Part shown: positions 4 to 10,000 of the stretch, piece after piece | How the letters are laid out: each line of letters begins with the position of its first letter | How positions within the stretch are numbered: position 1 is the first letter of the stretch | Assembly (NCBI GenBank): GCA_963813135.1 | Contig: CAWEXY010000021.1 | Span: 64,001-128,000, forward strand | From: an uncultured Verrucomicrobiae bacterium | GTDB taxonomy: Bacteria; Chlamydiota; Chlamydiia; Chlamydiales; Rhabdochlamydiaceae | DNA length: 64,000 bases | Reading direction: 5' to 3' | The notes under the pieces: generated by a model | Told to the model about the DNA's origin: nothing | The model's input: the letters and a program-made list of their open reading frames with translations, nothing else | The model's database searches: none | Position numbers and translations under genes: made by a program

Positions 4-933
4 GTGAAGAACATCTCTGTCCCCGGCATCAACGCCCCCTATAATCCCTCGATTATAAAATACAAAGATCATTACGCGATGGTATTCCGCTACGATGTTT
101 TGGATAAAAAATGTAAGCAACCCTTTTATACTTATGTAGGCTGCACCGAACTAGATAAAAATTTTTACAACATAAGCAAACAGCCTAAAAAGATCGATAC
201 CGGCAGCAAATTTTCAGAAGATGCCCGCATCATCCAGTTAAAAGATGACTATTATCTCATCTTTAATGATCTTTCGCCTGCGCCCAACAATTACTACTGC
301 CGCACCATGCGGATGGCCCAAGTTGATTTAAGCACAGGCCAAACGAAAAATGCATCTAACTACGACCTTCACTTTAAACCCATAGAAAAGAATTGGGCCC
401 CTTTTGTCTACAACGACTCCATCCATTTTGAGTATTCCCTAAACCCCCATAAAATATTAGAAGTCCCAGATCCTAAGAAAAGCGATCTTGCCCATTTGAC
501 CTTTCCCAACAACCCCTATTTCCAGCATTTCTCCTGGCCGAGCACTTGGGGCGAGATGCGTGGAGGGTCCCCCGCCCAGCTCATAGATGGACAATATGTA
601 GGGTTTTTCCACAGCTTCTTTCGAGATAAAGATAATTTTGCTTGGTATGTCATGGGCGCCTACACCTTTGAGCCCACACCCCCCTTCCGCATCACCGCAG
701 TATCCAGCCATCCCATCTTGTTTCAGGGAATCTACGAAACTTCAAGGCGCAACACAGGCAATCCGCGCCACCATGTGATCTACCCCGGCAGTTTCGTAGT
801 CGAAGAAACAGCCGACCGCAAACTGATCCACCTCGCCTGCGGGGAAAATGACAGCACAATAAAAATCGTCACCCTCGATAAAGAAAAATTGCTCAACAGC
901 CTAAAGCCCGTTGCTCCCAAAGGGAAGTCTTAA
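4..933 (+). CDS. Five-bladed beta-propeller glycosidase/glycosyltransferase-like protein (GH130/PH1107-like); probably 5'-truncated by the window edge
   Basis: Motifs YNPSI, EDARI, EKNWAPF, RGGSP, GFFHS and GENDS; directly abuts a glycosyltransferase gene. Confidence 0.6.
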   Translation: MKNISVPGINAPYNPSIIKYKDHYAMVFRYDVLDKKCKQPFYTYVGCTELDKNFYNISKQPKKIDTGSKFSEDARIIQLKDDYYLIFNDLSPAPNNYYCRTMRMAQVDLSTGQTKNASNYDLHFKPIEKNWAPFVYNDSIHFEYSLNPHKILEVPDPKKSDLAHLTFPNNPYFQHFSWPSTWGEMRGGSPAQLIDGQYVGFFHSFFRDKDNFAWYVMGAYTFEPTPPFRITAVSSHPILFQGIYETSRRNTGNPRHHVIYPGSFVVEETADRKLIHLACGENDSTIKIVTLDKEKLLNSLKPVAPKGKS

Positions 934-2184
934 ATGCCCCGAGCGCGCTTGAGCATCATCGCCTCCCTCATTTGCTGCTTCGTATTCCTATCCTCGTTTT
1001 TCTTGGACAAACAGCCCGACCTGACCATCTTCGGCTTCTGCAACATGGCCGATGGCGTCGGCAGGCAATCCCCGGAACTCATCGAAGCATTTAAAGAAGA
1101 ACTCTCCATCAATTTTATTCCCACTCGTCAGAGCAAGCTCACCGACGTTCCCAAAAGCATCAAAAAAATCCTCAAAGGCAAAAATCAGGACCTGGGAAAA
1201 GTCATCCTCTTTGAAGATCTTATTTGGTGGCCCGGCGAAGAGAAATTTCGCAAGCTGGATTTGCCCGAGGCTAAAAAAAGCATCAAGATTGCTTACTCGA
1301 TGTTCGAGTCCACCCAAATCCCGCCCGAATGGGTCATCATCCTCAACAACTATTTTGACGCCGTTGCAGTTCCCGACCGATTTCTGATCGATGTTTATGA
1401 GAAAAGCGGCGTTAAGATCCCCATATTCGAACTTCCCCTCGCCCTCAACCTTGACAGATACCTCGCAAAACCCCTCAAAACCCATCGCCGCTCGCCCCTC
1501 GTCTTCGCCAACTTTAGCGCCAGCAGCGATCGAAAAAACCAGCTCCTTCTCATCCGCGCCTTTGCTAAAGCTTTTGGCGACCGCGCCGACGTCCTCCTCC
1601 GCATCAATAGCCGGTCCGGAGAACCCCATGTACGCGAAGCCATCACCAAAGAAATCGCCGAGCTCAACGCCACGAACATCGTCTTCACCCAGTTTAACTT
1701 ATCTCAAGAAGAGTATCTTAACCTCTTCGACCAGGTCGATTGCTACGTCAGCCTTTCCAAGGGAGAAGGATTTTCCATCCAACCCCGAGAGGCCATGGCG
1801 CTCGGCATCCCCGTTATCGCCACCGATAACACCGGACAAAGCACCATCTGTCAAAGCGGCCTTGTCAAGTCCGTCGACTCTCCTCATCAACAACCCGCCC
1901 TCTATCCTTGGGGCGATTACTATGGCTATTCCTTTAACTGCTCCCTAACCGATGCCGCCGATGCCCTGCGTGACATGTACGACCATTATGACGACTACCT
2001 AAACAAGGCCCCCATGTCCCGGACCTGGGCGAAGCAATATCAATACGAAGCCCTCAAGCCCCTCTACCGTTCTCTTCTCCATCCCCAAAAAGTCCTCCTC
2101 GGGCCCGTGAACCAGCTCACGCCCGACGGCTTGATAACCACCTCACCCGAACTCGCCGCAAAGTACCAAAGTCTGTTTCCTTAA
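934..2184 (+). CDS. Glycosyltransferase family 4 (GT-B) with N-terminal membrane anchor
   Basis: RKN motif; SKGEGFSIQPREAMALGIPVIAT (ExxxxxxxE) signature; hydrophobic N-terminus. Confidence 0.85.
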   Translation: MPRARLSIIASLICCFVFLSSFFLDKQPDLTIFGFCNMADGVGRQSPELIEAFKEELSINFIPTRQSKLTDVPKSIKKILKGKNQDLGKVILFEDLIWWPGEEKFRKLDLPEAKKSIKIAYSMFESTQIPPEWVIILNNYFDAVAVPDRFLIDVYEKSGVKIPIFELPLALNLDRYLAKPLKTHRRSPLVFANFSASSDRKNQLLLIRAFAKAFGDRADVLLRINSRSGEPHVREAITKEIAELNATNIVFTQFNLSQEEYLNLFDQVDCYVSLSKGEGFSIQPREAMALGIPVIATDNTGQSTICQSGLVKSVDSPHQQPALYPWGDYYGYSFNCSLTDAADALRDMYDHYDDYLNKAPMSRTWAKQYQYEALKPLYRSLLHPQKVLLGPVNQLTPDGLITTSPELAAKYQSLFP

Positions 2185-2226: not shown

Positions 2227-5124
2227 ATGACGCAGAGGTTGCAAGGATCGACACTTTCCCAGCACCACAAAGCCGCTGCCGCAGAAGCTGACAGCGAGCT
2301 TACCCGCTGGTTTGAGCGTTTTCCGCAAGGCCGCGATTCTCGCCTGTTAGAAAATTTCCCCATTCTCTTCCTTTTCGCCAGCACGGAATTTCTCGACCAT
2401 CGGGAACCTCACCATCTTTTCCGGCTCATTCTTTCTCTTCACGTCATTGAACAAAAGTTAGGCCGATGCCTGACCCAATCTCCTGAGAGCCGGCACATAG
2501 AATTTAAAATCTTCCCCGCAACTCTTTTTTATCCCTTTTCTTCCAAAAAAGTCCTCGGCTGCACCGTAGGAGCTTATCTTCCCGATCCCAATGACCGCTT
2601 CGATGAACAATCCCTTTTTGCCGCGATACAGAAAATCATCGGACCCGTCCACTTTATCTCAGAAAGCATCTACCGCCATCCTGTCAAAAATAAAAACTTT
2701 CATCTCCTTTATCTCGAATTGGAAAAAAGAGACGCCCCTTTCACCCTCTATCATCGAAAATCTCTCCAAGCAAACCTCAAACAACAGCTGCTGCACACCA
2801 TCCCCAAACTTTTTCCCGCCGTCTTCATGCGCCGCAACCAAGAAGAAGTATTTAAGAACATCCTGCTCCTAAGCCAGCAAATAAACTCTGCTCACGATTT
2901 GCCCCAGGTCATGATTTCATTGGAAGAACAAACTTCTGAAGAGATTATTTTTTTGATTACCCTTGTCACAGTAGAAAAACCTCTTTTCTTTGACCCCAAT
3001 CTCATCATTGAGCGCCAACAAGTCGTGCGAAACTTACCCTCCGGCGAAAGCCTAAGGGCTTACCTTCTGCGTCTATCCCTTCCGCGCGAACCCTCTCTTT
3101 TTCGATCCAATGGATCATTGAATTTCTATTCAGCTCGAGAAAAAGCCTCCAAAAAACTCCAATCCTTCCTTGGAGATTTTCGCGATTGCAACGGAGGCCT
3201 CCTCATCAAGCAAAGCGAACACTTGCAAAACCTTAGAGAGGCTTTTCCCTCTGTAGACGCCGAGCTAATAGAGACATTTTTTTATTCCTTATCTCCCTTA
3301 GAAAAGCAAGCGACCATTCCAACTCCCGCCCTATCGCAATTTTTTGCCTTCTTCCTAGAAGGAACACAGCTCCCCCCCTCCGAAACTTATCAAATCCGCT
3401 CCTCTGAGTCCCATGAGCTTTTCTTTGCCTCCATCCAAAGCATATTTTCTATGAACAAAGATATGCTCTCCCTCCCTTCTCATCCTTCTCTAATCGATAA
3501 AGAAGTCATCTCAAGCTGCACAACTGTTGGAGGCATGACATATGTCAGTTACATGATCCTCAGGCCCCAGCCCCACGATTGTACTAATCTCCTTGATCTC
3601 ATCCGCGAAACAGCCCAGTCATGGCACCACCAGCTTGCCAGCCAGAAAATCGTTCGTGTCGCCCTCGAAGACAAAATTTCCTCCCTTGACCCGCGCATAG
3701 GGGGAGACAACGCCTCTCCACCCATCCTCAAAATGCTCTTTGAAGGACTAATGAGGCTCGATCGAGAAGGAAAGATCCAACCCGCCATCGCACGTGATGT
3801 TTCAATTTCAAACGATGCAAAAAAATATACCTTCCATCTTCGTCCCTCGGTTTGGAACGATAAAACATCCCTCACCGCACATGATTTCGAATACTCCTGG
3901 AAAACACTCCTCTCTCCTCACTCTCAGACAGCTTTTGATTATTTCTTTCATCCCATTCTTTTTGCTAAAGAAGTAAAAAACGGAGTCCTCTCTCTAGATC
4001 AACTAGGCGTTCGCGCCCTTGATGACCTTACTCTCGAAGTCAAACTTGTCTTTCCCACACCCTATTTCCTCCAACTCACTGCCCACCCCCTCTACTCCCC
4101 TATCCATCGCCAAATAGATCAGCGATCCCCCGAATGGCCAAGTCAATCGGGTAAAGCGTACCCCTGCAACGGCCCTTATGAGCTCAAATTAAATCATCCT
4201 AACACCGGCTACCAACTCATAAAAAATCCCCTCTACTGGGATAGTGAAAATACACAAATCGACAAATTTGTTTTAACACATGTTCCATCTTCTCAAATGA
4301 CAAAGCTCTTCCAAAAAGGCGAGATCGATCTCATTAGCACCCCCTTAACATCGTACCATACTTTCCATTCTATAGAAAAAGATGCGAACAGTGTCTTAAT
4401 GTCTCAAAATATAGTTTGTTGGTGCGCCATCAATACCCAACAACCCTTTTTTTCTTCTCTTTCCACTAGACTAGCTTTAATGCGGGCTATTGATAAATCT
4501 GCTTTGGCAAATTCTCTTCCATTCCAGGCAATTCCTGCCCACTCGCCCATAGAATTTTCCCATAGCTCCATCAAGGAAGAAGTTAAAACACAATTTCAAC
4601 AAATGTCGAATTTATCGCTACCCCATCAGTTAGAACTAATCTATGACTCACAATCAGAGAAAGTCGTTTACTCTTTACAAAAAATGTGGAGAGATTCCTT
4701 GGGAATCGAATGTGATCTTAAACCTTTATCATGGGCTACTTTCTTTCATCATGTAACGGAAGGAAAATTTCAGTTAGCAGTCATTTCATGGACTTCATGG
4801 ATTGATGATCCTATTTACACCCTCAACGCTTTCCGGCACGCCCATGATAAAATTAATTTTTCCAATTGGGAAGATCCCTCTTTTCAAGCCTTGCTTGACC
4901 TAGCAGACCAAGAAATCAACCCCCATATGCGCAATCAATATCTTGCCAAGGCTGAGCTTATTTTGGCTCAAGAAATACCTGTGATTCCTCTCTACTATTA
5001 CAATAGCCAATCTTTCATGAGAAATGGCATCAAGATAGAATATCATCCGTCTCATGGTTTTTTTAATTTTATGAGAACGATCCAAACAAAAAGAGGTGCT
5101 TATGAGTTTCGTAACCAAAAATGA
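2227..5124 (+). CDS. Fusion of an ~470-aa unknown N-terminal region and an OppA-type (SBP family 5) peptide-binding domain; no signal peptide
   Basis: C-terminal half has SLDPR, LFEGLMR, YTFHLR..WND..LTAHDFEYSW, NGPY and AE.IL.QEIPVIPLYY; no lipobox or hydrophobic leader; ATG 2227 chosen over TTG 2188. Confidence 0.85.
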   Translation: MTQRLQGSTLSQHHKAAAAEADSELTRWFERFPQGRDSRLLENFPILFLFASTEFLDHREPHHLFRLILSLHVIEQKLGRCLTQSPESRHIEFKIFPATLFYPFSSKKVLGCTVGAYLPDPNDRFDEQSLFAAIQKIIGPVHFISESIYRHPVKNKNFHLLYLELEKRDAPFTLYHRKSLQANLKQQLLHTIPKLFPAVFMRRNQEEVFKNILLLSQQINSAHDLPQVMISLEEQTSEEIIFLITLVTVEKPLFFDPNLIIERQQVVRNLPSGESLRAYLLRLSLPREPSLFRSNGSLNFYSAREKASKKLQSFLGDFRDCNGGLLIKQSEHLQNLREAFPSVDAELIETFFYSLSPLEKQATIPTPALSQFFAFFLEGTQLPPSETYQIRSSESHELFFASIQSIFSMNKDMLSLPSHPSLIDKEVISSCTTVGGMTYVSYMILRPQPHDCTNLLDLIRETAQSWHHQLASQKIVRVALEDKISSLDPRIGGDNASPPILKMLFEGLMRLDREGKIQPAIARDVSISNDAKKYTFHLRPSVWNDKTSLTAHDFEYSWKTLLSPHSQTAFDYFFHPILFAKEVKNGVLSLDQLGVRALDDLTLEVKLVFPTPYFLQLTAHPLYSPIHRQIDQRSPEWPSQSGKAYPCNGPYELKLNHPNTGYQLIKNPLYWDSENTQIDKFVLTHVPSSQMTKLFQKGEIDLISTPLTSYHTFHSIEKDANSVLMSQNIVCWCAINTQQPFFSSLSTRLALMRAIDKSALANSLPFQAIPAHSPIEFSHSSIKEEVKTQFQQMSNLSLPHQLELIYDSQSEKVVYSLQKMWRDSLGIECDLKPLSWATFFHHVTEGKFQLAVISWTSWIDDPIYTLNAFRHAHDKINFSNWEDPSFQALLDLADQEINPHMRNQYLAKAELILAQEIPVIPLYYYNSQSFMRNGIKIEYHPSHGFFNFMRTIQTKRGAYEFRNQK

Positions 5125-5461
5125 AATTCAGTATTTTCCTATTATCGAACAAATAGAGTCCCATATTGCTTGGCATGGGAATATTACCGGCTTAGAAACA
5201 GAAGACCTGCTTCAAGGAAAGAATCCCTTTACCTTTGTAATACGCAAAGGGGAAAAGCTTATGAATTATTATGTTTCCTTTGTTCAAAAAAATGGATCTT
5301 TTAAACATCAGCCCCTCCTCATACGAGTAACCGCTGAAGGATGGTTCTATCGCAATACGTTGAATAGCCTACCCTCCTATCGTCCATTTGTGGATTTTCT
5401 CCATCGTATCATCCATTGCGACGAAGGAGAGTGCCAGCCATTACCCTGCGCACACAAATAA
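5102..5461 (+). CDS. Stand-alone SH2-like domain protein
   Basis: AWHGNIT..ETEDLL.GK.PFTFVIRKGE...YYVSFV...GSFKH follows the SH2 consensus WYHG.I.R.EAE.LL....GTFLVR.S....Y.LSV....VKH; GAGG RBS; overlaps the upstream gene. Confidence 0.75.
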   Translation: MSFVTKNEIQYFPIIEQIESHIAWHGNITGLETEDLLQGKNPFTFVIRKGEKLMNYYVSFVQKNGSFKHQPLLIRVTAEGWFYRNTLNSLPSYRPFVDFLHRIIHCDEGECQPLPCAHK

Positions 5462-6802
5462 ATGTCTCCAACATCTCATTCGTGGAGGAGTTATCTCCTC
5501 CTTTATCTTCCTATAGCCGGAACATCGTTCCTTTCGGCGCTTTTTCCTTTTTTGGAAAAGATCCTCCTCGGACGTTTTTCTACGCAATCCCTCGAAGCTA
5601 TCGTGGGTGCAACCACTGTTTTACTTATTTTTCAATTCTCCTGCATTAGCATCGCCGCCCTAACGCAAGTCGATATCGCCCGCTATGCCGGAGCCGGCCA
5701 AACCCAGCGCATAGGCCCCTGCATTTGGCAAATGATCTGGTTTTCCCTCCTTTCCATGATCATCACCGTTCCCGTAAGCCTCCTCTATGGCCATTATTAC
5801 TTCGCAAATACATCCCTCCGCGATCTTGCCCTGCCCTACCTCCACCTCATGATCGCTACGAATTTTCTTCTTCCTTTGGGCGCTGCCCTTTCCGCGCTTT
5901 TTCTTGGAACCCGCCGCGGCAAAGAACTCTTCAAAATCAACCTCCTCGTTCAAACCATCGGATTCTTCCTATCTCTCGTTCTCATCTTCGGACTTCCCCC
6001 ACTCATCCCACCCCTCGGCCTTATCGGAGCTGGCATCGCCTTCATCGCAACCCAGGTCCTTATCTGCCTTATCCTCCTATATAAATTTTTCAGCCTCCCA
6101 CCCACTTTTGCTACAACTGCATGGAAATTCCATCCCTCCCTTTTCTGGAGCTATATCCGCCCCGGCCTTGTCCGTTCCTTTATGCGCAGCTCTGTCGCAA
6201 CCGCATGGTCTCTCATATTCCTTGTTATCCTCCGAAAAGGCGAAGATTTTCTCCTTATCTTCACCGTCGGAGGCACCCTGTGGCCTATATTCAGCATCGT
6301 CGCCAATGGTATGCAGCAACTCTTAATCACCGAAGTTTCTCATACTGCTAACAGTCCTTATTCACTATCCAACACCTTGCGCCAAGGCCTCATTCTCAGC
6401 GCTCTCATCATTGTAGCTTCGGCTATTCCCTTTCTGCTATTTCCTAAGCAACTCTTCTATTTCTGCATTTCAACTCCCCTTGACTTTCCCCAAACTATTG
6501 GACTCGGGCTCTGGCTTTGCCTTTCCTTTAACATTTTCTTCGGTGTCGCAAATGCATATATTCTTGCTTTCAAAGACATTTTTCAGCTCCTTGTCTTAGG
6601 GAGCATCACATGGATACTTGATCTCGCATTACCTTACCTAATTTTCACCTACCTTCCCATCGCTGCTCCCCAACTTTGGCTTGTGCTCGCCTTTAGTATT
6701 TTTCTCACCGCCGCTATCAACAGCCTTCGCGCCCGTTTTCTCATACGCAAAGTCCTATCCCCAAAATCTCCATTAGATTCCATACCGATAATCCTTGATT
6801 GA
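5462..6802 (+). CDS. MATE family efflux transporter (paralog 1)
   Basis: About 12 hydrophobic segments; IARYAGAG motif; EKILLGRFS. Confidence 0.85.
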   Translation: MSPTSHSWRSYLLLYLPIAGTSFLSALFPFLEKILLGRFSTQSLEAIVGATTVLLIFQFSCISIAALTQVDIARYAGAGQTQRIGPCIWQMIWFSLLSMIITVPVSLLYGHYYFANTSLRDLALPYLHLMIATNFLLPLGAALSALFLGTRRGKELFKINLLVQTIGFFLSLVLIFGLPPLIPPLGLIGAGIAFIATQVLICLILLYKFFSLPPTFATTAWKFHPSLFWSYIRPGLVRSFMRSSVATAWSLIFLVILRKGEDFLLIFTVGGTLWPIFSIVANGMQQLLITEVSHTANSPYSLSNTLRQGLILSALIIVASAIPFLLFPKQLFYFCISTPLDFPQTIGLGLWLCLSFNIFFGVANAYILAFKDIFQLLVLGSITWILDLALPYLIFTYLPIAAPQLWLVLAFSIFLTAAINSLRARFLIRKVLSPKSPLDSIPIILD

Positions 6803-6839
6803 CCTTCCAACAATCTCGTACAATCCCCTTCTCAAATAA

Positions 6840-8225
6840 ATGAAAACGAGCAATTCCCTCTCTTTAGATCCTAAAATAGGAAGCATCAAACACCTCTTAT
6901 TTCTGTATTTTCCCTTAGTCGGCGTCGCCCTTCTCTCGACACTTTTTCCCTTTTTAGAAAAAATCCTTCTCGGCCGCTTTTCATTAGAGGCCATGGAAGC
7001 CGTCATCGCAGCCTCCACCGTATGCAATGTCGTAAAAATCCCCTGTATTACCGCTGCATTTATCGCTCAAGTTCATATCAGCCGCTTCGCGGGCGCCAAT
7101 ACCCCAGAACATATGGGCCCCTGCATTTGGCAGATGATCTGGTTTTCTTTCCTCTCCATGATCATCACCGTTCCAATAACCCTCATTTATGGGCATTACT
7201 ATTTTGCAGGAACCACCATTCGCGACCTTGCCCTTCCCTATCTTTACATCATGACAGCCGGCAATTTCCTCTTCCCCTTAGGCGCTGCTCTTTCCTGCTT
7301 CTATCTCGGAAATAGAAGAGGAAAAGAACTCCTTAAAATCACCTTCCTCGTCCAGTCCCTAGGCCTTTGCCTCGCCTGCGTTCTTATCTTTGGAATATCC
7401 ATTATCCCACCCCTCGGCCTCATAGGCGCTGCGCTCGCTTTCATCTCTACCCAGCTTCTGTTCTGCCTCATACTCTTCCGCAACTTTTCCAAATCCTCCC
7501 CCATCTATGCGCCCTCTTCCTGGAAGCTCCGTCCTTCTCTCCTATGGGAGTACCTGCGCACAGGGATAATCCGCGCCTTTTCCACCACGTCCACTCTATT
7601 TGCTTGGTCCGTGATATCGTTTTTTGTTATTCACAAAGGAGATGACTTTCTCCTTATCCTAACTCTGGGAGGCGCCCTTTGGGAAATCTTCTCCGTCCTG
7701 ACAGAAGGCCTGCTGCAATTGCTCACAACAGAAGCCTCCCAAATTATTGGAGGCCAGCAAAGATCCCTCATTGAGAAACCCTTTCGCATAGGACTCCTCT
7801 TCAGCCTGGGAATCTCAGTAGCTCAGGCCATCCCCCTGCTCCTATTTCCTCAACAGCTCTTCCACATCTGCTTTTCAACGCTCACGCTTTCCTCCACTTC
7901 GCTCAGCATCCTAGCCCTAGGTCTTTGGACATGTTTCACCCTGGATGCGCTCAACGTTGTCGGAGTTGGGTACATCCTTTCATTCAAAGACACATTTCAG
8001 TTCATCCTGCGAGGAATCCTCTGCTGGATTTTTGAAGTCGGCTGTACATATCTTATTCTCCATAACTTTTCCATCGAGGCTCCGCAGCTTTGGCTTGCCA
8101 TCAGCGCTGGCCACCTACTCGTGGCCATGGTGGCCCTCCTCCGCGGCCGCTTCCTTGCAAAGCGGTATGCCTCTTCCATAGACTTTCAAGATCAGCGTTC
8201 ATTGGAAGCTGAAATCCAACACTGA
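6840..8225 (+). CDS. MATE family efflux transporter (paralog 2)
   Basis: Tandem paralog of 5462-6802; shared LFPFLEKILLGRFS and GPCIWQMIWFS.LSMIITVP. Confidence 0.85.
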   Translation: MKTSNSLSLDPKIGSIKHLLFLYFPLVGVALLSTLFPFLEKILLGRFSLEAMEAVIAASTVCNVVKIPCITAAFIAQVHISRFAGANTPEHMGPCIWQMIWFSFLSMIITVPITLIYGHYYFAGTTIRDLALPYLYIMTAGNFLFPLGAALSCFYLGNRRGKELLKITFLVQSLGLCLACVLIFGISIIPPLGLIGAALAFISTQLLFCLILFRNFSKSSPIYAPSSWKLRPSLLWEYLRTGIIRAFSTTSTLFAWSVISFFVIHKGDDFLLILTLGGALWEIFSVLTEGLLQLLTTEASQIIGGQQRSLIEKPFRIGLLFSLGISVAQAIPLLLFPQQLFHICFSTLTLSSTSLSILALGLWTCFTLDALNVVGVGYILSFKDTFQFILRGILCWIFEVGCTYLILHNFSIEAPQLWLAISAGHLLVAMVALLRGRFLAKRYASSIDFQDQRSLEAEIQH

Positions 8226-8312: not shown

Positions 8313-9518
8313 TTACCAGATGGTAATTCCCCCGCGCACTGTGACAGCCGCGTCCAAGGATTCGCCGGGAAGGAACCCTTTTGTTTTCCCCCCAACTTGG
8401 AGAAAAAGCGAACCCGAAGAACTGAATTGCCTTCTCAACATAATCGAAGCTGCAACTCCGACTTTTGGATCATAGGGTGAGGATGGAAAAGCCTCTTGCA
8501 GCTCCCATTTCTCTCTAAGGCTTTTGTAGGAATACTTTTTATCTTTGAACGCTGTATGCGGTTGATACCAACCATCGAAGCGAACGCCCACTGCTGTTTT
8601 TTCGTCATGCCAAAGCAAAGAGGGATGCTCGAGGCCAATGCCTGGGTAGACGTGTCCCGAATGACGGCCATATCGCAAATAAGCATAGATAGGCTCATTC
8701 CCTTTCAGGAGATAATTTTCCAAATAGTATTCCGGACCAAAAGGAGTAAGGCCAAGACGCAGACCTGGAAGGTATCCATATTCCCCTACGGGAATCATAG
8801 GAACTGGCCTCTGATTGCCTCGGACAATGTAATCTCCCCAGCTATACATGGCAAGATACGTGAAGGGGTCTAAGAGATTGATCCAAGCCTGCCGCTTGAG
8901 GGATTTGATAGACAGATGATCATCTGAATAGACCTCGTTAAGCAGATCGACATAATGCTTAACATCTCCTACATCATACACAGAATCTCTCGTATGATGG
9001 GTATACCACGTCAAATCATGCTGCGAAGATAGGTAAAGGACCGTTGATCGTGGATCGAGGTTTTCATTTTTAAGCCAACTGAGTTTAAGGCGATTTGCGA
9101 GAACAGCGGTTCCTTCCATTCCTGCGGAATCAATTGCCAAACTTTGAAACGGGGTCCATTTGGGAGAACGCTGAAACATCGTATATCCCCCGCCATTGGC
9201 ATAGGGGAAAGGAACTCCAACGCCATACTTCAAAACATGTCCATGCAGGCTTCGAACACGATAACCATGCCCAAAAACTTCATGCTGCGCTGTAGACGCA
9301 TATCTGCCAAGCGGATCCCAGAAACCAATTTGTGTGAACAGGCGCTCATACCAAGGCGGCGATGCGCTACGAGCATCTAGTGCCCACTCGGCAACATGAA
9401 ATCCTTCGATGATATCTTCACCTCCCGCATAAGGCGAAAAATGGGGATCCATGATGAAGTTAAAATGATCCTCAGCGAAAAGAGCACCGCAGCACAGAAA
9501 TAAGCAAATGGTTTTCAT
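8313..9518 (-). CDS. Exported protein of unknown function with HEVFGHG motif; paralog of 17177-18400
   Basis: Signal-like MKTICLFLCCGALFA (start moved to ATG 9518); C-terminal beta-strand pattern ending in W. Confidence 0.7.
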   Translation of the reverse strand: MKTICLFLCCGALFAEDHFNFIMDPHFSPYAGGEDIIEGFHVAEWALDARSASPPWYERLFTQIGFWDPLGRYASTAQHEVFGHGYRVRSLHGHVLKYGVGVPFPYANGGGYTMFQRSPKWTPFQSLAIDSAGMEGTAVLANRLKLSWLKNENLDPRSTVLYLSSQHDLTWYTHHTRDSVYDVGDVKHYVDLLNEVYSDDHLSIKSLKRQAWINLLDPFTYLAMYSWGDYIVRGNQRPVPMIPVGEYGYLPGLRLGLTPFGPEYYLENYLLKGNEPIYAYLRYGRHSGHVYPGIGLEHPSLLWHDEKTAVGVRFDGWYQPHTAFKDKKYSYKSLREKWELQEAFPSSPYDPKVGVAASIMLRRQFSSSGSLFLQVGGKTKGFLPGESLDAAVTVRGGITIW

Positions 9519-10000
9519 GGTTATTCTCCGAAAGAAAAACCATGATCGCAAAACAACAAGCAACTATCAATGTAAAACAATGTGTATAAAATCAATTATA
9601 TTATTAATTCCTAATACGCAAATCACCTAGCATAAGCCAAGAAGGCGGAATCATGTGTTCGAGTGATTCATATTACTTTTCAATTTAAGTTTTATATGAA
9701 CATTTGTTTTAAATGCACTGATTTATGGAAAACAGGTCACATATCCGTTCTGCCAACTCCAAATCCACAATTTTCGAACTAATAGAATATAATTTAAAAA
9801 ATTACTAAAAAATTACACAAAACATAAAAAACCAAAAACTTACTGAAAAAATCAAAATAAACACATTTAAAATAAATTAATTTTTTGTCATCAAGCCACA
9901 CTTAAGCCTGTTAAAATATCTTGAAAATTGTTAACATCGTCGATGACAAAAGAAAAAATTAGCCAGTTTACTGAGTTCAGTTAAGGAGTAGGAGCGAAAA

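Follow-up and report, generated by a model that had tools for sequence, protein, structure and literature searches.

The question raised by this locus is why a gene for a stand-alone SH2 domain lies between the gene of an OppA-type receptor and two exporter genes in a chlamydial genome. SH2 domains are textbook phosphotyrosine readers in animals and amoebae, and to our knowledge bacterial SH2 domains have been documented only as host-aimed proteins of Legionella. The locus occupies positions 2227-8225 of a 64,000-nucleotide stretch, called the window here, which belongs to an uncultured bacterium of the Rhabdochlamydiaceae (contig CAWEXY010000021.1, here C21, of assembly GCA_963813135.1). It encodes a fusion protein with a C-terminal OppA-type domain (named FUS here), a 119-residue SH2-fold protein, and two transporters of the MATE family. 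The reading preferred here, which is given a probability of about 0.4, is that this cassette is a cytoplasmic ligand sensor with an SH2 adaptor that controls MATE export.

The genes, and the two parts of FUS, are as follows.

2227-5124, + strand: FUS fusion protein, 965 amino acids, leaderless, with a putative ACT-like array and an OppA-type SBP_bac_5 domain
2227-3642, + strand: N-terminal part of FUS (residues 1-472), modelled as a helical head and four beta-alpha (ACT-like) modules
3643-5124, + strand: C-terminal OppA/MppA/DppE-type solute-binding domain of FUS, with no export signal of its own
5102-5461, + strand: stand-alone SH2-fold protein, 119 amino acids, recognized by Pfam SH2, AlphaFold2 (AF2), Foldseek, and VIA
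5462-6802, + strand: MATE1, MATE-family transporter 1, 446 amino acids, the more divergent tandem paralog
6840-8225, + strand: MATE2, MATE-family transporter 2, 461 amino acids, orthologue of the single MATE in related cassettes

The four genes are tightly packed on the + strand. The overlapping and abutting four-gene array described in the original prediction, which was made from the sequence alone, matches the open reading frame (ORF) coordinates, and the reported coordinates are confirmed. The 5’ end of the SH2 gene overlaps the 3’ end of the FUS gene by 23 nucleotides. MATE1 starts at 5462 and abuts the SH2 stop, and the gap between MATE1 and MATE2 is 37 nucleotides. FUS starts with the ATG at 2227, with an alternative TTG at 2188 in the ORF list. 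Both this ATG and the ATG at 5102 match the N-termini of the same-genus orthologues in alignments.

The small protein is a true SH2 domain. Pfam SH2 (PF00017) matches it with 24.4 bits at a cut-off of 21 (E 3.1e-5), and the other copies in this genome do less well, one with 16.7 bits and the third with no Pfam match at E<=0.01. The AF2 model, based on a 17-sequence family alignment, has a pLDDT of 83.8 and a pTM of 0.75. Foldseek against the PDB returned 257 matches at E<=1e-3; among the matches listed, the top ones are all SH2 domains, and they are eukaryotic (PLC-gamma, p85, Src, Grb7, and SOCS). VIA gave Z values up to 10.5, with a root-mean-square deviation of 2.9 over 98 residues and 386 chains at Z>=8. 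A profile of the chlamydial SH2 family matched 76 PDB sequences at E<=0.01, the best of which is the C-SH2 of p85-alpha (1.2e-6). The claim that the small ORF folds as an SH2 domain is thus borne out by the AF2 model, Foldseek, VIA, and the profile comparison with the PDB. No hydrophobic segment is present in the protein, which means that it has no classical export signal.

The residues of the phosphate pocket are largely retained. The family stretch ‘[FY]-T-Y-L-L-R-x-G-E’ aligns to FLVRES, and R48, in ‘FTFVIRKGE’, is the counterpart of the Arg in the FLVRES motif of p85. This pocket Arg is kept in 49 of 57 non-identical SH2 proteins, and His69 is kept in 54 of 57. We take these two residues to be Arg betaB5 and His betaD4. 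In addition to the pocket, the family has invariant residues of its own, W24 and N85, and mostly H105.

Family members were collected by profile and genome searches, which were used in place of a word-index homologue search that recovered only the query itself. The SH2 profile search of 1.84 billion representatives gave 748 matches at E<=1e-3 and 247 at E<=1e-10, part of which are false. Most of the best 150 matches are single-domain proteins of 88-192 residues, and the small SH2 proteins, where they are named in the sources, are named ‘hypothetical protein’. In the ESM Atlas, two Chlamydiota clusters of small SH2 proteins are present, and Pfam SH2 is found on only 29% of their members. The long top matches of the profile (1,000-6,700 residues) were set aside as probably false; the two that were scanned (P0002 and P0014) are MBG_2 repeat proteins. 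Such MBG_2 (YGX-type) repeat proteins reach high summed SH2-profile scores by way of many short matches, which makes them an annotation trap.

The same kind of SH2 domain also occurs in larger proteins. One is a 401-residue chlamydial protein with a C-terminal SH2 domain of 29.8 bits (L128:5171-6376(+)). Two others are a 903-residue protein with an SH2 domain and a U-box, and a 718-residue SH2 protein (P0118 and P0127). Solitary SH2 genes were seen in one genus with 1.2-Mb genomes (L124:6002-6373(-) and L127:6031-6408(+)). These stand behind the gene of a 488-497-residue protein that has no Pfam match, and the locus also adjoins a MiaB-like radical-SAM gene. The 488-residue protein beside the solitary genes (genus g58) was considered as a relative of the N-terminal part of FUS and was ruled out, with an hhalign probability of 0.07.

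The C-terminal 490 residues of FUS form a full-length SBP_bac_5 domain. Pfam places the family at residues 529-886 of the 978-residue frame (E 1.8e-52), and the nearest NCBIfam models are of OppA type, with scores far under their cut-offs. The best PDB match is the OppA of B. subtilis (8are, E 1.6e-67), and MppA (3o9p) matches the domain at E 1.7e-47. The complete SBP_bac_5 domain is thus common to FUS and the OppA, MppA, and DppE receptors of ABC importers (8are, 1b05, 3o9p, and 8ay0).

FUS differs from a periplasmic OppA in several respects. An array of 470 residues and of cytoplasmic type stands where the leader would sit. A hydropathy scan found no hydrophobic segment anywhere in the 965 residues, and hence no classical export signal or lipobox; the original prediction had claimed that the OppA domain lacks an export signal, and on this point it was right. 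There is no linked permease or ATPase, and the linked transporter is a MATE. The prediction had also reported that oppBCDF is missing. This agrees with the Pfam result, in which no ABC permease or ATPase gene was found in the window from 1 to 12.4 kb. All five BPD_transp_1 matches in the genome are on contigs C9 and C7, with none on the window’s own contig C21 and none near the other fusion genes on C11. No permease or ATPase family is recurrent in the clustering of neighbors at 78 related loci.

A further difference lies in the binding site. The Asp of the ‘GDF’ stretch of OppA (8are) aligns with Trp858 of FUS, and all 14 aligned FUS homologues have W or L in this column. This Asp presumably anchors the free N-terminal amine of the bound peptide in OppA. 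If that role is correct, the Trp or Leu makes canonical binding of ordinary free peptides by FUS unlikely. With no export signal, no linked permease genes, and no anchoring Asp, FUS does not fit the description of a periplasmic OppA. The genome has seven SBP_bac_5 genes, four of ordinary size (539-557-residue frames) and three of the FUS type.

The N-terminal part of FUS has no Pfam family match. Its size of about 470 residues was given correctly in the original prediction; an ACT-like regulatory array describes it better than the word unknown, since it is not fold-less and models, by AF2, Foldseek, and VIA, as a helical head followed by ACT-like modules. The AF2 model has a pLDDT of 85.2 and a pTM of 0.45, and shows the helical head and then four beta-alpha modules. 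The top Foldseek match is 7jsr (E 3.7e-6, but with a TM of 0.20 over the whole model), the 180-kDa glutamate dehydrogenase (GDH) of Mycobacterium smegmatis, with its N-terminal regulatory region as the part matched. VIA gave a Z of 7.1 to 7a1d, the same large GDH, and a Z of 6.5 to an ACT domain of aspartokinase. The VIA matches include other ferredoxin-like domains, and Z values in this range are common according to the tool. For residues 195-372, the ESM Atlas offers GDH_2nd, GDH_ACT, and GDH_HM at 0.76-0.83, to be read as leads only. A conserved motif, R319-D320-x-N322-G323-G324, lies inside the N-terminal part, and residues 200-365, which include it, are barely covered by the fold searches. 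Taken together, the N-terminal part is assigned with reserve, and with moderate confidence, to an ACT-like regulatory array. The arrays of the large GDH (7jsr and 7a1d) and the aspartokinase ACT domain are its best fold matches; it differs from them in that there is no match at the level of sequence families and in that the FUS array is fused to a binding protein and not to an enzyme.

A stand-alone twin of the N-terminal part is encoded elsewhere in the same genome, on contig C30 (L107:6043-7704(-)). The twin is 553 residues long and 25% identical (E 2e-38). Its gene overlaps by 4 nucleotides a gene for a 266-residue AA_kinase protein (L107:7701-8501(-)), which has no ACT domain by Pfam and corresponds to a truncated aspartokinase. 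The ACT-like folds and the pairing of the twin with an AA_kinase gene are the reasons why a sensor function is suggested for the N-terminal part of FUS.

The twin also bears on a different proposal for the ligand, in which FUS would bind N-blocked diaminopimelate peptides from murein, the array would sense products of the aspartate pathway, and MATE would release them. The diaminopimelate/lysine pathway begins with aspartokinase, MppA ranks with the best matches of the OppA-type domain in the PDB, and the Trp or Leu in all 14 sequences would fit an N-blocked ligand, provided that the Asp has the role assumed above. The OppA of B. subtilis is, however, a better match than MppA, and no cell-wall gene is recurrent near the cassette. 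This proposal is considered improbable.

SgrR, a cytoplasmic SBP_bac_5 regulator with an N-terminal DNA-binding domain, had been named in the original prediction as a precedent. The likeness holds as a functional analogy only: in both cases a leaderless family-5 solute-binding domain has a cytoplasmic sensor role, which for FUS is a proposal. No DNA-binding family was matched on FUS, where only the SBP type was found (Pfam at E<=0.01, and NCBIfam); unlike the N-terminal domain of SgrR, its N-terminal part models as ACT-like modules.

Both transporters are probably divergent members of the MATE family, as judged from their sequences. Pfam MatE (PF01554) matches MATE1 with 29.5 bits and MATE2 with 35.8 bits at a cut-off of 24.9. 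For TIGR00797, the scores of 66.3 bits (MATE1) and 74.1 bits (MATE2) are both below the cut-off of 147.4. MATE1 and MATE2 are 50% identical to each other. The single MATE of a same-genus cassette is 69% identical to MATE2 and 48% identical to MATE1. The solved structure nearest to MATE2 is Aq128 (6fv6, E 3.4e-6). A crude hydropathy scan gave 10 peaks for MATE2 and 16 partly overlapping peaks for MATE1; both proteins appear polytopic and are basic, and MATE1 has an isoelectric point of 9.6. The MATE family is known for the export of small molecules.

The related loci come from metagenome-assembled genomes (MAGs) of Chlamydiae, whose record titles include Rhabdochlamydiaceae, Parachlamydiales, Parachlamydiaceae, Protochlamydia, Simkania, and Waddliaceae. 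The few other labels (Verrucomicrobia and Chlamydia trachomatis) are presumed to be mislabels. In a sample of 301 genomes and 165 genera from the phylum, a profile of the N-terminal part of FUS had matches in 265 genomes and 156 genera, with none in the 30 sampled genomes of one family (f20, mostly genomes of about 1.1 Mb from one genus). The SH2 profile was found in 74 of 300 genomes, 40 of 165 genera, and at least 10 families, with some of the weaker matches being partial ones to other proteins.

Linkage was viewed from both ends. FUS is adjacent in 30 of 34 SH2-centered loci, comprising all 14 from the home family and 16 of 20 from other families. MATE is adjacent in 12 of the 14 and 15 of the 20, respectively. 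The FUS-centered set consists of 78 loci with 75 full-length FUS genes; these are the best tblastn relatives, and the set is therefore biased to close kin. Fifty-three of the FUS genes have at least 2.5 kb on both flanks. Among these, 29 have both SH2 and MATE, seven have SH2 only, six have MATE only, and 11 have neither. For FUS proteins of less than 1,100 residues, the class to which the window’s gene belongs, both partners are present in 25 of 35. The two views share genomes and are not independent. As FUS can occur alone, with MATE only, or with SH2 only, neither partner is obligatory for it, and this pattern shows FUS to be the hub of the cassette.

When the neighboring ORFs of the 78 loci were clustered, the recurrent families were FUS (75), SH2 (46), and MATE (43), and the next family reached at most nine. 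Gene order and strand vary among the loci (divergent, convergent, or with MATE between FUS and SH2), and the linkage persists throughout. Up to four cassettes are present per genome. At some loci, G147:C58 among them, one FUS gene is followed by a tandem of two or three SH2-like genes. Conservation of the FUS/SH2/MATE triad had been set beforehand as a test of the original prediction, and the triad was found to be conserved across families of Chlamydiota. The arrangement is more than chance, given its recurrence in many genomes. That the three genes could be neighbors by descent alone, with no functional link, is compatible with the 11 of 53 FUS genes that stand by themselves. Adjacency nevertheless survives many families, paralogous copies within a genome, and inversions of gene order, and no other gene family is kept nearby; an absence of any functional link is regarded as very improbable.

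The three genes also diverge together. Pairwise distances of FUS and SH2 correlate with r 0.82 (n 55 non-redundant cassettes; the maximum of 500 permutations was 0.12). The correlation is r 0.94 for FUS and MATE (n 42) and r 0.81 for SH2 and MATE. Because the distances of the three genes correlate, the cassette must have been inherited and duplicated as a unit.

The genome of the window contains three FUS-SH2 pairs, namely the window’s cassette and two on contig C11, one with and one without a MATE gene. In the C11 cassette with MATE, FUS and MATE are each present as two frames (L016:6856-8222(-) and L016:8621-11537(-)). The recA gene of the same MAG likewise appears as two overlapping frames (L108:5464-6517(-)). 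The splitting may come from indel errors in the assembly, as the split recA suggests, or else the genes are true pseudogenes. The third pair (contig C11, L108:7528-11021(-)) encodes proteins of 1014 and 153 residues with a 13-nucleotide overlap and no MATE. Divergently upstream of it is an OppA gene of conventional size (535 residues, L108:11936-13543(+)), with a 279-residue ORF between them.

In the preferred reading, FUS would stay in the bacterial cytoplasm and sense a small ligand. The ACT-like array would probably sense a ligand of amino-acid type, and the OppA-type domain would probably bind a peptide-type ligand without a free N-terminal amine. The SH2 protein would serve as a dedicated adaptor and would recognize a phosphorylated site, for which FUS or the transporter is the likeliest carrier. 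As a result, the MATE exporter would be controlled or supplied with substrate, and the cell would get rid of, or release, a compound derived from peptides or amino acids. In this scheme we infer the cytoplasmic location, the ligand classes, the protein contacts, the dependence on phosphorylation, and the direction and substrate of transport. A known parallel in concept is the trans-inhibition of MetNI, in which ACT-like C-terminal domains gate the transporter from the cytoplasmic side. The shared idea, proposed here for FUS, is a cytoplasmic ferredoxin-like sensor that tunes a transporter by the level of a ligand. The two differ in that the sensor of MetNI is part of the importer’s ATPase; FUS would stand apart from the transporter it acts on, a MATE exporter, and would have the SH2 protein as its partner.

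The original prediction had proposed a module for sensing or modification and export, in which SH2 has a bacterial role. Linkage, as read from the gene neighborhoods, favors a role of SH2 on the bacterial side. The modification part was dropped, since the clustering of neighbors yielded no recurrent fourth gene family near the cassette, and thus no enzyme gene linked to it.

A source of phosphorylated sites exists, because the genome, a chlamydial MAG of 1.8 Mb, encodes 11 Hanks-type kinases above the Pfam cut-off (contigs C11, C15, C19, C23, and C6). Six of the 11, with frames of 599-929 residues, score 195-211 bits with PK_Tyr_Ser-Thr, which is higher than with Pkinase. The kinase set looks like an expansion of TKL-like kinases. 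None of the 11 kinase genes is linked to the cassette; the two TKL-like ones on C11 are separated from the fusion genes by at least about 28 kb. A bacterial phosphotyrosine-reader pathway of environmental chlamydiae can be drawn, in which the SH2 protein would read tyrosine phosphorylation placed on FUS or MATE by the cell’s own Hanks-type (TKL-like or dual-specificity) kinases. This specific pathway is judged unlikely. The genome also encodes a 1101-residue protein (L108:14274-17579(+)) of eukaryote-like, effector-type architecture, in which TPR repeats accompany a PARP catalytic domain (28 bits at a cut-off of 26.7).

Several observations weigh against a sensor and exporter joined by an SH2 adaptor. 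No kinase or phosphatase family is recurrent near the cassette in the clustering of the 78 loci, and a low-molecular-weight protein tyrosine phosphatase (LMW-PTP) was not found in the window’s genome, which is 82% complete. The ACT-like assignment is only moderate, with VIA Z values of about 7 and Atlas scores below 0.9. The cassette is modular, as the FUS genes with one partner (six with MATE, seven with SH2) or with none (11 of 53) make clear. Outside the home family, four of the 20 SH2-like genes are away from FUS (L111, L124/L127, and L128); at L111, SH2 and MATE follow uvrC with no adjacent FUS. Two or three SH2 genes are in tandem at some loci (L024/L080, L031, and L056), a pattern common in host-interaction genes. 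Co-divergence of adjacent genes follows from their co-inheritance and is no proof of contact. Finally, the pocket Arg is replaced in eight of the 57 SH2 proteins (by Ser in six, His in one, and Tyr in one).

The last of these points means that phosphate reading cannot be universal in the family, since eight members are without the pocket Arg. It leads to a different view, in which the SH2 protein would have kept its fold but would not read phosphotyrosine, and would be a subunit of FUS with a structural or regulatory task; the sensor and exporter would stand as described. The eight proteins are in intact cassettes, the invariant W24, N85, and H105 lie outside the stretch aligned to FLVRES, and the neighbors include no recurrent family of kinases or phosphatases. 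The retention of Arg in 49 and His in 54 of the 57 proteins, together with the FLVRES-like stretch, points instead to selection on the phosphate pocket in most members. A phospho-independent subunit is accordingly judged rather unlikely for the family.

The tandem SH2 genes, and the retained pocket Arg and His, also fit a host-directed effector. In this case the SH2 protein, possibly with FUS, would be delivered by type III secretion and would bind tyrosine-phosphorylated proteins of an amoeba or animal host, as the SH2 effectors of Legionella do, and MATE would be a bystander or meet an unrelated need. The bacterial SH2 proteins known to have been characterized are those of Legionella (LeSH, RavO, and others; Kaneko et al. 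2018), and eight of 10 tested were translocated by a secretion system (PMC6208348). Like the chlamydial family, the Legionella effectors have a true SH2 fold and the conserved Arg of the phosphotyrosine pocket. The closest sequence and fold matches of the chlamydial domain are eukaryotic SH2 domains, and other eukaryote-like genes are present in the genome (the TKL-like kinases and the PARP-TPR protein). A leaderless SH2 protein is compatible with this explanation as well, as chlamydial effectors have no classical signal peptide.

Other features are at odds with a host-directed role. The SH2 gene is wedged between the genes of a receptor and a polytopic transporter, often with overlapping stop and start codons. 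It co-diverges with FUS and MATE over many families, which is unusual for effectors, and FUS has a twin of housekeeping type that is paired with an aspartokinase. The SH2 proteins are single domains with no second domain of effector type. Legionella SH2 proteins are mostly multi-domain. The chlamydial SH2 proteins differ from them in being single domains of about 120 residues that are locked into a receptor-exporter cassette. No Legionella chain is among the matches listed in either the sequence or the fold searches, where the best are eukaryotic (p85, PLC-gamma, Grb7/10, SYK, and SOCS). What favors a role inside the bacterium is that SH2 is closely linked to, and co-diverges with, both a receptor that has no leader and an exporter of the membrane; the effector explanation is judged unlikely.

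Full-text searches, in a collection with few subscription journals, yielded no published account of an SH2 protein from chlamydiae or of a FUS/SH2/MATE cassette. Chlamydiae are not mentioned in the text of PMC6208348. The parts of the cassette belong to known superfamilies, and the kinds of system nearest to it, bacterial SH2 proteins and sensor-linked exporters, are known as well. New here are the SH2 family as such, its nearly exclusive linkage to FUS, and the link to MATE, together with the findings that the three genes co-diverge and that the phosphate pocket is conserved. The family is a second, large family of bacterial SH2 proteins, kept over long evolutionary times in a fixed cassette whose other members are a MATE and a leaderless receptor of OppA type.

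If the phosphotyrosine-reader pathway is correct, SH2 signaling would couple ligand sensing to export inside a bacterium, as an old and vertically maintained trait of a branch of the phylum and not as a recent effector that mimics the host; such a pathway would be categorically new. An SH2 domain acting inside the bacterium would be the first SH2 reader in prokaryotic physiology, and it would make it possible to test which compounds obligate intracellular chlamydiae sense and export. Should the SH2 protein be an effector, SH2 mimicry would be known from intracellular bacteria of a second phylum. In both cases the cassette offers a functional handle on the fusion family, which has matches in 265 of the 301 genomes sampled.

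The cassette is flanked upstream of FUS by a GH130-like ORF and a GT4 glycosyltransferase gene, and downstream, on the opposite strand, by a 416-residue ORF. Neither the GH130-like/GT4 pair nor the 416-residue ORF is recurrent at the related loci. A scan for promoters and terminators gave counts close to those of shuffled sequence (16 vs. 12.5 and 12 vs. 10.2), and hence no evidence for an operon boundary. Among sequencing runs, five DNA runs were listed as carrying the sequence, at small shares of 0.05-0.12, and no RNA run was listed. In the upstream region (window 4-2184(+)), the GT4 glycosyltransferase gene is abutted by a 309-residue ORF, which weakly matches beta-1,4-mannobiose phosphorylase (E 5.7e-4). 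The GT4 glycosyltransferase bears an N-terminal hydrophobic segment. The downstream 416-residue ORF (window 8313-9563(-)) has no family match beyond a sub-threshold one to Tox-REase-5 (21.1 bits, cut-off 25). A leader-like hydrophobic stretch follows the second Met of this ORF.

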